A program made the position numbers and the translations under genes. DNA of 64,000 nt, from the IMG/VR virus record IMGVR_UViG_3300047564_001818. One strand, written 5' to 3'. The first letter of the stretch is position 1. Each line of letters starts with the position of its first letter. Source of the stretch: a virus (Duplodnaviria; Caudoviricetes). Positions 24,148-35,345 of the stretch are shown here, one piece after another. The notes under the pieces were generated by a model. The model did not search any database. It was given only the letters and a program-made list of their open reading frames with translations, and was not told where the DNA came from.

Positions 24148-24219
24148 TTAGAGGTTGACAAGCCCTACTCCCTGTGCTATATATATGTGGAGTAGGGCAA
24201 CACAACAGAGGGCGACACA

Positions 24220-26025: not shown

Positions 26026-26098
26026 ATAATGGTTGACAGCACACCACTGTCGTGCTATAACTAACACATAGGGCAACACTGCTAGAGGAGCACAGCAG

Positions 26099-27420: not shown

Positions 27421-27490
27421 TAATGGTTGACACGGCTCTACTCATGTGCTATTGTATATGAGTAGGGCAACGCTGCTAGAGGAGCACACG

Positions 27491-28120: not shown

Positions 28121-28234
28121 ATGGACTGGACCATCGAGGAATATCTTGAGTTTGAACGGCACTTGCTAGAACAAGCAGAAGCGGACGAAGACGAAATTCC
28201 GGTTGACGAACCTGTCTACTGGTGCTATAACTAA
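28121..28234 (+). CDS. Acidic 37 aa peptide
   Basis: MDWTIEEYLEFE...; GGAG RBS; runs through the next promoter. Confidence 0.45.
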   Translation: MDWTIEEYLEFERHLLEQAEADEDEIPVDEPVYWCYN

Positions 28235-28262
28235 CACATAGGGCAACACAAAGGACGCTGAG

Positions 28263-28597: not shown

Positions 28598-28786
28598 ATG
28601 AAAGATTACATGACACTGATCGCAATCATTGACCGGCTAGGCTATATTGCAGAACTTCCGTCAGCTAAGATCCGCCAAGCACTGGATCAATACATTGCTC
28701 AACTGGAAACAGAAGTTCGTCAAATTGATGAAGAGACGGAACGTCAATGTCGAATTGATGACATGTTCGAGAACGTGCCAGTGTAA
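28598..28786 (+). CDS. Early hypothetical protein
   Basis: Own promoter and GAGGG RBS; precedes the tRNAs. Confidence 0.7.
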   Translation: MKDYMTLIAIIDRLGYIAELPSAKIRQALDQYIAQLETEVRQIDEETERQCRIDDMFENVPV

Positions 28787-28795
28787 ATAGACAAC

Positions 28796-28871
28796 GCCCG
28801 GTTAGCCCAAAGGTAGAGGCAACAGACTTAAAATCTGTCAAGCGTCGGTTCGACCCCGACACTGGGTACCA
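28796..28871 (+). tRNA. tRNA-Leu(UAA), short variable loop
   Basis: Acceptor GCCCGGT/ACTGGGT, anticodon arm ACAGA-CTTAAAA-TCTGT, GTTCGA, encoded CCA. Confidence 0.9.
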
Positions 28872-28876
28872 AACAT

Positions 28877-28953
28877 GGGGGATTAGCTCAATTGGTTAGA
28901 GCGACGGTCTCATAAACCGCAGGTTATCGGTTCAAGTCCGGTATCCCCTACCA
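28877..28953 (+). tRNA. tRNA with CAU anticodon (elongator Met or Ile2)
   Basis: Acceptor GGGGGAT/ATCCCCT, loop CTCATAA, GTTCAA, CCA; lacks initiator features. Confidence 0.88.
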
Positions 28954-28959
28954 AATATT

Positions 28960-29036
<77 letters not shown>

Positions 29037-29039
29037 AGT

Positions 29040-29097
29040 TAGCAGGAGTTGAGATTGCGCTGTGTTGCCCTATGCTGCGTTGGATCTCCTCCTGCTA
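29040..29097 (+). ncRNA. Putative antisense sRNA hairpin whose loop is complementary to the shared early-mRNA 5' leader
   Basis: Stem TAGCAGGAG/CTCCTGCTA + GAGAT/ATCTC + GCGC/GCGT; loop TGTGTTGCCCTATGCT contains the reverse complement of CATAGGGCAACACA. Confidence 0.7.
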
Positions 29098-29127
29098 CGC
29101 TGATAGAGTTTAACCAAGGAGAACACC

Positions 29128-29307
29128 ATGGCTATCTGTCCTAACTGTCATACACCAGACAAGAACTTCTTTGCGCCTGCTTGCCATGCTTGCAACGAAC
29201 AGATTCCTTTGATCCAGCAGATCATTGTTAGCTTGATCTTCTTGTCAGTCAAGGCAGTGTTTGTGATTGCGATGTTGTGGTTCCTTTTTGTTTATCTTCC
29301 AGGTTGA
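29128..29307 (+). CDS. Zn-ribbon (CxxC...CxxC) plus transmembrane 59 aa protein (absent from ORF track)
   Basis: MAICPNCH...ACHAC then a hydrophobic tail; AAGGAG RBS. Confidence 0.65.
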   Translation: MAICPNCHTPDKNFFAPACHACNEQIPLIQQIIVSLIFLSVKAVFVIAMLWFLFVYLPG

Positions 29308-29358
29308 CAACTGCTGCGTAGAGTGTATACTGAACAAGTAATGAGCAAAGGGCACAAC

Positions 29359-30360
29359 ATGACTAACGTTACAATCATTGACGGCACGTACAAGATCCGC
29401 GGCGCTGACACTTCAGTAGCTGGTCTGACCTTTCCGTTGGTAGAACCGTTCCGTATGGGCAAGACTGGCGGCTATGTCACTGTGGATGGTTCAGCTGTGA
29501 ATGGCTTTCCGGCTCGCAACATCAAGATCCGTGTGAACAGTGAGCAGGACTACGAACTGCTAGAAGGCCCCGCTGTATACAACTCTAGAACAGAAACTGA
29601 TGCGGAGATTGTTGAGCGCATCCGTAGTCGCTTTGCTATGCTGGGCGAGATGACCAAGGCTGTGAAGAAGGGCGATGTACGTGCTATGATCGTATCAGGT
29701 CCTCCGGGTGTTGGCAAGAGCCACGGTGTTGAAGAAGTATTGGATCGATACAAGATGATGGAGACCATGGGCGGCAAGAAGACACACGAAGTGATCAAAG
29801 GCGCTATGAGCCCGATCGGACTGTACTGCAAGCTGTTCAAGATGAGCGAAGCTGGAAATGTGGTTGTGTTCGATGACTGTGACAGCATCTTCCAGGAAGA
29901 CCTAAGCTTGAACATCCTCAAAGCTGCACTAGACAGCAAGCAGAATCGTTGGATCCACTGGAACACTGACAGCTTCAAACTGCGCAACGAAGGTGTGCCT
30001 GACAAGTTCAAGTTTGAAGCTAGTGCAATCTTTATCACCAACTTGAAGTTCGACAAGGTCAAAGGCAAGCTTAGAGAACACCTAGAAGCATTGGAGTCAC
30101 GCTGCCACTACATGGATCTAACGATCGATACCGAACGTGATAAGATGCTGCGCATCCGGCAAGTGATTGAAGATGGTATGCTGGATGTGTACACACTGAG
30201 CGATGACATCAAAGAAGACATCATCGACTTCGTGGACATCAACAAGAGCCGACTGCGTGAACTGAGTCTGCGCAGTGTGCTCAAGGTAGCAGACCTGGCA
30301 GTAAGCTTTCCAGACCGCTGGCAGGACTTTGCTGAGAATACGGTGATGCGTCGAGCCTAG
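29359..30360 (+). CDS. P-loop AAA-type ATPase
   Basis: Walker A GPPGVGKS, Walker B VVVFDDCD, ALESRC; own TTGACA promoter. Confidence 0.85.
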   Translation: MTNVTIIDGTYKIRGADTSVAGLTFPLVEPFRMGKTGGYVTVDGSAVNGFPARNIKIRVNSEQDYELLEGPAVYNSRTETDAEIVERIRSRFAMLGEMTKAVKKGDVRAMIVSGPPGVGKSHGVEEVLDRYKMMETMGGKKTHEVIKGAMSPIGLYCKLFKMSEAGNVVVFDDCDSIFQEDLSLNILKAALDSKQNRWIHWNTDSFKLRNEGVPDKFKFEASAIFITNLKFDKVKGKLREHLEALESRCHYMDLTIDTERDKMLRIRQVIEDGMLDVYTLSDDIKEDIIDFVDINKSRLRELSLRSVLKVADLAVSFPDRWQDFAENTVMRRA

Positions 30361-30375
30361 CTCCGCATGCCGTTG

Positions 30376-30551
30376 GGACAATGGACCGCCCTCGTCCATT
30401 GTCCACATGTGGACTGAGTGTGCCCTCGCTCAGTTCACGAAGGCCGAAGCAGCCGATAAGAGCTGTTCGGTAAGGCTGGTAGACGAGCCCTCACGCTCTG
30501 CCAGAACAGCCCGGAGTTGGCGTGCCCTCTGCCGCTCCGGGCTATTTTTTT
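30376..30551 (+). ncRNA. Putative multi-hairpin sRNA with four GCCCUC loops, ending in an intrinsic terminator
   Basis: Hairpins 30376-30404 (loop CGCCCTC), 30409-30438 (TGCCCT-C), 30443-30471, 30476-30504 (AGCCCTCA), 30508-30543 (GTGCCCTCT) followed by T7. Confidence 0.75.
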
Positions 30552-31433: not shown

Positions 31434-31522
31434 AAAAACAGCAGCACACAGCACTTTTTACTTGACAAGTGCTGTGTGCTGTGCTATAAGTTACACATAG
31501 GGCAACACAAGAGGGACTGCAC

Positions 31523-31714: not shown

Positions 31715-31816
31715 CACAAAAAAAACAGCAGCGCACAGCAACTTAGGGGTTGACAGTTGCTGTGTGCTGTGCTATTGTTAACACATAGGGCAACACAACA
31801 CAAGAGGGACCTCAAG

Positions 31817-33065: not shown

Positions 33066-33117
33066 CAACACCCTACTCTGGTGCTATAGTATTAGAGTAG
33101 GGCAAGAGGAACACGTC

Positions 33118-35137: not shown

Positions 35138-35345
35138 GTGTGCCTCTCAGTGTGTTGCGCTATACATAATGTATAGCATATTTTTGAGTGTCGTGCAAGC
35201 ACTAAGTTTTGTTTAATAACAAGGGGTTAGAGAAAAAATTTTTTGAGAGGGGGGGTGGGGGGTATATAAAAATAAATCTTTATAAAACAAGCACTTAGCT
35301 TAATGATCTGTTTTTTTGTCACTTTTCTAAAACTGGGTGATGCAG

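Follow-up and report, generated by a model that had tools for sequence, protein, structure and literature searches.

Analysis of the window, the whole 64,000-nt stretch of phage DNA held in IMG/VR record IMGVR_UViG_3300047564_001818, revealed that the hairpin lying directly behind its tRNA cluster is a member of a conserved structured-RNA family outside Rfam. We show that this element closes the tRNA transcription unit as the stem-loop of a PeSL-type cassette, PeSLs being the stem-loop plus early-promoter cassettes of the hyperplastic early regions of T4-like phages (Arbiol et al. 2010, PMC2839356; Comeau et al. 2014, PMC4122927). Our overall reading, held tentatively and with somewhat less than even confidence, is that of an accessory PeSL-type 3′-trailer hairpin with a C-rich loop able to pair with an AGGGCA box of the early mRNAs. 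The initial annotation, made from the letters of the window, had gone further and proposed a discrete RNA of 55–65 nt that pairs with the shared 5′ end of 17 early mRNAs and controls the whole early regulon. The coordinates of the features are collected in Table 1.

The hairpin begins 1 nt past the CCA (encoded at 29034-29036) of tRNA-Arg(tct), the last tRNA of the cluster. The long hairpin annotated at this place was borne out by folding, with none of 200 shuffles folding as well as the native sequence, and covariance model R1 (see below) scored the window copy at 68.5 bits (E = 1.5e-15). No Rfam match was found at the hairpin at E values up to 1 in the window and up to 0.1 in six relatives. 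The 16-nt loop that had been annotated did not hold up, since the minimum free energy (MFE) structure pairs 29062-65 with 29072-75 and leaves a hexaloop at 29066-71, in accord with the pair probabilities and with the family covariance model. The sequence after the stem (CGCUGAUAGAGUUUAACC) has no U-tract, and a scan for intrinsic terminators gave 0 terminator-like sites at the window hairpin.

The comparison took in about 130 related contigs, with the relatives located via the AAA-ATPase gene (32 viral and 80 metagenome loci), which in the window lies 230 nt downstream of the hairpin. These relatives bear the same tRNA trio as the window in varying orders, and a hairpin of 45–70 nt directly follows the last tRNA (Arg or Leu) in 24 of 48 distinct tRNA-cluster 3′ flanks. 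Model R1 was built from eight members, after which its matches were re-aligned and their pairs counted. In the resulting alignment A5, 96.5% of the cells were paired and 11 of 19 pairs were changed on both sides; covariation in the family extends to all 7 apical pairs. None of 500 shuffles reached the observed values, and slid registers also fell far short. For helix 1, the corresponding figures were 99.4% of cells paired and 4 of 12 pairs changed on both sides. The family is defined by a GGAG/CUCC basal stem, a GU(U/A)GA element above it, a variable but covarying apical stem and a YGCCCU hexaloop. This hexaloop is nearly invariant (13 of the 14 rows of A5) and is usually followed by C, and the position of the UUGAG element reads UUGA or UAGA in every aligned member, with columns G9, T10, G12 and A13 of alignment A1 invariant or nearly so. 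Downstream, a TTGACA promoter starts 10–30 nt past the hairpin in 17 of the 24 members, and a T5 run follows the stem in 8 of the 24. An interpretation of the hairpin as a micro-ORF was considered and rejected, the apical stems covarying in nucleotides without conservation of amino acids.

A sister variant carried by L276–L278 differs from the window hairpin at two positions. The substitution 29074 G>A turns U63.G74 into U-A, and 29080 T>C turns G57.U80 into G-C; both replace a wobble by a Watson-Crick pair, as a stem under selection would predict, and leave the 13 bases matching the transcribed leader unaltered. Simple patterns were searched as well: a scan of the viral contigs with the basal-stem pattern returned 29 chance palindromes and L036, a scan with the 3′ end of tRNA-Arg brought up no new hairpins, this tRNA end being common to many unrelated phages, and the pattern CAGGAGTWGA...CTCCTG gave chance matches only among the matches listed.

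With regard to the loop, the annotated complementarity was confirmed, as 29061-29074 matches the early leader CATAGGGCAACACA exactly in reverse complement. Also confirmed was the placement of this leader behind early promoters: most forward copies lie 5–6 nt downstream of near-consensus extended -10 promoters (TTGACA-N17-TGcTATAAC), with a Shine-Dalgarno (SD) box and ATG about 10–20 nt past them. The early island of the window consists of about 20 promoter/SD/ATG cassettes, and about 15 of its sigma70-type early promoters precede the leader. Allowing ≤2 mismatches, 17 occurrences of the 14-mer were counted in the window, with 0.65 expected. Forward copies at this threshold number about 15, and the 17 early mRNAs of the initial annotation were reached only with the TAGGGC core. 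Under normal spacing, the predicted first transcribed base is the A or G in (C)ATAGGG or (A)GTAGGG, so that 13 nt of the 14-nt match would be transcribed and the leader RNA would begin AUAGGGCAACACA; as had been noted, both purines face the same base, U29073. The reverse copy indeed has no promoter ahead of it on the minus strand. It had been annotated as the only reverse-orientation copy, but 3 of 20 window promoters have shorter cores in this orientation (GCCCTACTC and similar) within their spacers, and further GCCCUC loops occur at 30376-30534. Among lineages the promoter is constant and the transcribed leader drifts, from CATAGGGCAACACA in the window, L043 and L020/L036 to TATAGGGCAAACAA in L148 and L150 and TGTATGTATAAGTTAAACAA in L139, L142, L145, L147, L155 and L170; leaders of the CAUAGGGCAACACA type are found in the L020/L036 and L148 lineages.

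The hexaloop is matched by a motif shared across the clade of 68–81% identity. The top 5-mers upstream of start codons in this clade were GAGGG, AGGGC and GGGCA, and given the fact that a start codon stands within 3–13 nt after GAGGGC in 359 of 376 distinct contexts, GAGGGC(A) was taken as the early SD box of the clade. The top 5-mers of non-tRNA loops were GCCCT and CCCTC, with 135 distinct GCCCTC contexts in coding-strand hairpin loops, and GAGGGCA has its exact complement in TGCCCTC, the most frequent loop word. Terminators, the tRNA 3′ trailer and a five-hairpin array are all among these hairpins; their stems are unrelated and their loops identical, which indicates that the loop sequence itself is under selection. 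Both the SD-box motif and the loop motif are absent from the distant AT-rich clade of 46% identity. Within the window, GAGGG[AC] boxes are restricted to the early block on the + strand.

The family loop is the exact complement of the early SD box, and elsewhere the tRNA-linked tips match early mRNAs over 6–7 nt only; a tip–leader match of 12–15 nt is confined to the window lineage. This lineage has a second AGGGCA box at transcript positions +3 to +8 (UAGGGCAAC), ahead of a GAGGGA-type SD, and the 3′ neighbour of its loop is changed from C to A, which fits U instead of G in the box. Since the conserved loop exactly complements the early ribosome-binding-site box, RNA–RNA pairing with early 5′ regions is a reasonable mechanism. 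The 13-bp duplex is worth -22.7 kcal/mol, opening of the tip (29061-29073) costs +3.6 kcal/mol, and opening of the target costs +0.4 to +1.3 kcal/mol for most leaders and +4.0 at 26068. RNAcofold gave -1 to -8 kcal/mol, a value not used as evidence because loop-linear kissing lies outside its model. The proposed pairing with the early leaders stands as complementarity that is far beyond chance and energetically favourable. Most of the 14 nt lie in the covarying stem and not in an open loop.

A mechanism that fits these data would run as follows. The polycistronic unit comprises, in order, promoters at 28203 and 28541, two small ORFs, the three tRNAs, the hairpin and the 59-aa ORF, and the hairpin would be co-transcribed with the tRNAs. 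Processing by RNase P and RNase E would leave it as a 3′ trailer, or as the 5′ end of the mRNA of the 59-aa ORF. In that place it may protect the RNA end or guide processing, and relatives with a U-tract may use it as a terminator. Through its exposed C-rich hexaloop it could make a first kissing contact with an AGGGCA box on early mRNAs, this box being the SD GAGGGC(A) in the case of relatives and, for the window lineage, the leader box at +3 to +8. In this lineage, melting of the G.U-rich apical stem would let the contact extend to 13 bp with the 5′ ends of about 15 early transcripts, and the likely effect would be that early messages are modestly dampened or stabilised.

Several observations weigh against this reading. 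Three classes can be told apart among the contigs that encode the 59-aa ORF in identical or 96%-identical form, namely those with the window-type hairpin (L280, L283–L287), those with the two-substitution variant (L276–L278) and those with no hairpin (L274, L275, L279, L281, L282), the last missing exactly 29037-29106. In alignment A6 the segment is absent from L274, L275, L281 and L282, with L275 reading CCA-AGTT-TAAC across the junction, and the next relative, L043 (85% identical), is likewise without the hairpin. Since the hairpin-less near-identical phages retain the same promoters and leaders, leader conservation is independent of the hairpin and any regulatory effect is dispensable. The existence of such phages in nature makes the element accessory, not an essential regulon switch; early expression does not have its master switch in the hairpin, which can at most be an optional modulator, and the regulon-wide control envisaged in the initial annotation is unsupported. 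In L036, the same leaders and basal stem occur with a tip (GUGUUGGUCU) that lacks the GCCCU loop. This is in part the pattern which the initial annotation had named as counting against it, the tips of other relatives matching 6–7 nt of the SD and not the leader. The window copy, having neither a U-tract nor a promoter of its own, is an atypical "half" PeSL. On steric grounds, we infer that the full 13-bp duplex needs the 4-bp middle stem opened too, and the conservation of the loop could equally reflect a protein ligand. Transcription, processing and pairing of the hairpin are all deduced from sequence. The wetland metatranscriptome X20, the single RNA data set found, whose contigs cannot show RNA ends and may include DNA carry-over, has contigs over 29157-29303 and 29434-29584, in the neighbouring ORFs, and none over the hairpin or over 29074-29157, and speaks neither for nor against expression.

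Other explanations were weighed against the same data. The account of the initial annotation, a dedicated trans-acting small RNA (sRNA) that is freed by tRNA 3′ processing and pairs with the first 12–14 nt of most early transcripts, shutting down or shielding the regulon, is improbable. It would account for the exact 14-nt complement with about 15 targets at ≤2 mismatches, for a net pairing of about -18 kcal/mol before topological cost and for the lineage-specific extension of the match, and regulatory RNAs from the spacers of tRNA transcripts provide precedents (3′ETS-leuZ; sRNA binding by tRNA internal transcribed spacers, PMC4583644). Against it stand the deletion of the hairpin in near-identical phages that retain every leader, L036, which has the leader and not the loop, and the position of the complementary bases, mostly within the stem conserved by covariation. 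Position 29074, which faces a probably untranscribed C, has changed from G while the leaders are unchanged. In addition, the sequence does not predict a discrete 55–65 nt species, since the window copy is without its own promoter and shows neither a terminator nor any other defined 3′ end. Even less likely, to a degree that we give it very little weight, is an internal sigma70 promoter in the hairpin tip (TTGAGA, 16 nt, TATGCT or TATACT) that restores transcription of the 59-aa ORF, the likeness to an antisense leader then coming from clade promoter spacers that often read GTTGCCCTATGCT. The promoter scan does flag this site with 9/12 matches, the -10 of L276 is improved to TATACT, identical to the -10 at 29304, and promoters of relatives carry GTTGCCCTATGCTATAA and TGTGCCCTATGCTATAT spacers. 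Yet the site is far weaker than the near-consensus promoters of the phage and has no TG extension, hairpin-less relatives presumably express the 59-aa ORF without it, the -10-like sequence is absent in other family members, and strengthening of the stem explains the L276 substitution equally well.

A reading free of RNA–RNA targeting, which we judge unlikely while giving it real weight, takes the element as a structural stem-loop for termination, processing or stabilisation and as a PeSL DNA recombination module, with the GCCCUC loop kept for an RNA- or DNA-binding protein and the 14-nt match a by-product of templated mutation or gene conversion among cassettes sharing a GGGC/GCCC core. The PeSL layout in 17 of 24 family members and the clean 70-nt indel between AGTT repeats agree with it. 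PeSLs drive indels, the papers describing them speculate on a protein recognising the stem-loop, and T4 deletions often end at GGGC/GCCC inverted repeats (PMC2839356, PMC4122927; for the deletion end-points, Mosig 1998 as cited in PMC2839356). One leader matches the tip over 15 nt, 3 bases of which lie upstream of the predicted +1, and the same core is found inverted in the spacer of some promoters. Gene conversion alone, however, cannot account for conserved loops on unrelated stems, and the loop motif is the exact complement of a clade-specific SD, the two being jointly lost in the distant clade. Among 20 early ORFs scanned against Pfam, no RNA-binding family was recognised, a weak argument as most of them are ORFans. 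At the other extreme, dozens of GCCCUC-loop hairpins may form a clade-wide "anti-SD loop" system that pairs with the early box GAGGGC(A) and jointly governs how the early regulon is translated or how stable its messages are, in which case the window lineage would have retargeted its tRNA-linked member by 8–9 extra bases to the 5′ ends of early transcripts; this broader proposal appears doubtful to us at present.

Among known systems, PeSLs come closest to the preferred reading of an accessory trailer hairpin. They stop transcription arriving from upstream, drive the ORF that follows and bring about indels and mini-circles (PMC2839356, PMC4122927). The likeness extends to an intergenic stable stem-loop in a hyperplastic early region of many small ORFs, each with its near-consensus sigma70 promoter, SD and ATG, to the hairpin standing directly upstream of an early promoter in 17 of 24 relatives, and to the 70-nt indel between contigs encoding an identical 59-aa protein. 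The window copy differs in standing at the end of a tRNA cluster and in lacking the strong sigma70-like promoter right after the stem-loop: no strong consensus promoter was found between the tRNAs and the 59-aa ORF, the sole candidate being the weak 9/12 site within the hairpin. The stems described for PeSLs are short (GN...CN or A3G3...C3T3), and a conserved loop has not been reported for them, whereas the present element is a composite hairpin of 45–70 nt with a covarying apical stem and a YGCCCU(C) loop complementing the early SD. Such a composite covarying structure with an invariant anti-SD loop appears not to have been described for PeSLs.

Further parallels concern the position and the loop. 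As described by Lalaouna and colleagues in 2015, E. coli 3′ETS-leuZ reportedly sponges sRNAs and binds Hfq. It resembles the present hairpin in being a short stretch right behind the final tRNA of a polycistronic tRNA transcript with base-pairing potential, of which here the hexaloop alone is accessible, and in relatives with a U-tract the hairpin would equal a 3′ external transcribed spacer including its terminator. Unlike it, the presumed partners here are mRNA 5′ regions, and the window copy runs on into an ORF without a terminator. Firmicutes RNAs such as RsaE/RoxS and RNAIII have hairpins with C-rich loops complementary to the G-rich SD, sometimes several per RNA. The five-hairpin array at 30376-30551 may be compared with these as a functional analogy only, the host lineage being unrelated and the present loops being phage-encoded and reading GCCCUC, not UCCC. 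T4 RNA C and RNA D, roughly 120–140 nt long, are like our hairpin in position only, as small non-tRNA RNAs in or next to a T4-type tRNA cluster and co-transcribed with the tRNAs; they are longer, and no anti-SD loop has been reported for them. Internal spacers of E. coli tRNA transcripts also bind sRNAs (PMC4583644). RNA C and RNA D are the species 1 and 2 stable RNAs of the T4 tRNA region, with roles unknown, and according to a 2010 review, functional characterisation had not been achieved for any trans-acting regulatory RNA of T4 (PMC3014915). Cis helices sequester the SD region in the T4 genes e, soc, 49 and I-TevI, and translation there depends on the promoter used (PMC3014915). A few promoters here similarly have a GCCCUC-like anti-box in the spacer (e.g. 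L147:1894), but the T4 helices are local hairpins at single genes, whereas the anti-box here lies in separate hairpin loops and in the window matches the 5′ leader, not the SD.

The hairpin family represents a conserved structured RNA, absent from Rfam, in widespread uncultured aquatic T4-like/PA5oct-like phages, and its invariant loop complementing an unusual early ribosome-binding-site box is a testable candidate for RNA-based control of early genes. A possible RNA-level function would thereby be added to PeSLs, so far seen only as terminator/promoter units and recombination modules. For the window hairpin itself expectations are lowered: being optional in nature, it cannot be the reason for the conservation of the early leaders.

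The source of the window is an uncultured aquatic phage of T4-like organisation, with PA5oct as a distant relative. Its large proteins are tail fibres, a large terminase, a DnaB-like helicase and another helicase; terminase and helicase are T4-like and PA5oct-like, and the terminase is 54% identical to the large terminase of the Pseudomonas jumbo phage PA5oct and its kin. PA5oct needs the RNA polymerase of its host, has TTGAC/TATAATA promoters and carries Met, Leu and Arg tRNAs (PMC7318152). In PA5oct neither a tRNA cluster nor the hairpin adjoins the homologue of the AAA protein. A DNA search of the phage genomes deposited in GenBank with 28700-29400 gave tRNA matches only and no close relative; IMG/VR and aquatic metagenomes, by contrast, contain many such relatives. 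More distant homologues of the 59-aa ORF (P0003–P0007) have other ORFs upstream and no tRNAs, and are uninformative on the hairpin.

Table 1 Features of the window that bear on the tRNA-linked hairpin and on its possible targets
Feature	Position	Strand	Evidence and remarks
tRNA cluster Leu(taa)-Met(cat)-Arg(tct)	28796..29036	+	ARAGORN; Rfam tRNA matches of 57-67 bits
Whole hairpin	29037..29101	+	MFE -30.1 kcal/mol, z = -5.3; family core 29040-29097
Presence/absence segment of 70 nt	29037..29106	+	AGTT direct repeats at 29037-40 and 29107-10; alignment A6
Basal stem, 5′ arm UAGCAGGAG (SD-like GGAG)	29040..29048	+	Partner 29089-29097; family alignments A1, A3, A5
Conserved UUGAG element directly above basal stem	29049..29053	+	U49 and U50 bulged
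Weak promoter-like site inside hairpin, TTGAGA-16-TATGCT	29049..29076	+	Promoter scan, 9/12 matches
Middle stem, 5′ side	29051..29060	+	29051-56 with 29083-88, 29057-60 with 29077-80 (MFE)
Exact 14-nt reverse complement of early leader CATAGGGCAACACA	29061..29074	+	
Apical stem, 5′ side GUGU	29062..29065	+	With 29072-29075 (AUGC): G-C, U.G, G.U, U-A (MFE)
Hexaloop UGCCCU, complement of AGGGCA	29066..29071	+	Unpaired probability at least 0.9; opening energy 0.0
Basal stem, 3′ arm CUCCUGCUA (includes CUCC)	29089..29097	+	Family alignment
59-aa ORF (zinc-ribbon and membrane helix) downstream of hairpin	29128..29307	+	SD AAGGAG
Five-hairpin array after AAA-ATPase gene	30376..30551	+	Four loops GCCCUC; last hairpin followed by T7
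Leader copy of the promoter that probably drives the tRNA and hairpin unit	28237..28250	+	Also a representative target
Representative exact leader copy (target)	31496..31509	+	
Other leader copies (starts)	23821, 24191, 24413, 24668, 25161, 26067, 30588, 31784, 32043, 33756		

The array lies between the stop codon of the AAA-ATPase gene and the next promoter (202 nt, MFE -95 kcal/mol, z = -5.4), and the same array follows the homologous gene in essentially all relatives of 68–81% identity. Its last hairpin is a terminator with an architecture like that of the tRNA-linked hairpin, and the whole looks like a conserved multi-hairpin RNA or 3′ untranslated region.

Some minor observations were made on the tRNA clusters of the relatives. 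The order of the tRNAs is permuted in L139–L273 (Leu-Met-Arg, Met-Arg-Leu, Met-Leu-Arg, Arg-Leu, Arg only), and some relatives have additional hairpins between their tRNAs (L142, L234, L209); the cluster is a hot spot of rearrangement. Behind tRNA-Leu of L148 (L148:5247-5330) there are two tandem fragments like tRNA 5′ halves (GGAyCCTTAGCTCAGCTGG), and a remnant of the 3′ basal arm of the hairpin, CTCTTCCTGCTAA, precedes the next promoter. These fragments are decayed copies of tRNA/hairpin elements.

Inverted repeats were also found at some of the early promoters of the window. At 24162-24198, 27435-27468 and 33071-33102 (+ strand), a GCCCTACTC-like spacer forms an inverted repeat of 8–10 nt with the promoter's own leader GAGTAGGGC, which would sequester the leader in read-through RNA at these three promoters, and spacer–leader inverted repeats with other sequences are seen in relatives (e.g. 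L139, L036). Such a repeat as a feature of every promoter was rejected, being found at only 3 of 20 (self versus cross means, 4.7 versus 4.3). Perfect or near-perfect inverted repeats of 15 nt (CAGCACACAGCACTT / AAGTGCTGTGTGCTG) surround the -35 hexamer of two further early promoters (31442-31481 and 31729-31769, + strand), forming hairpins with the -35 in the loop. Finally, at the edge of the early island, a leader-like copy on the minus strand (TATAGCGCAACACA, 35151-35164) follows a promoter-like sequence and may represent a divergent early-type promoter for minus-strand genes.

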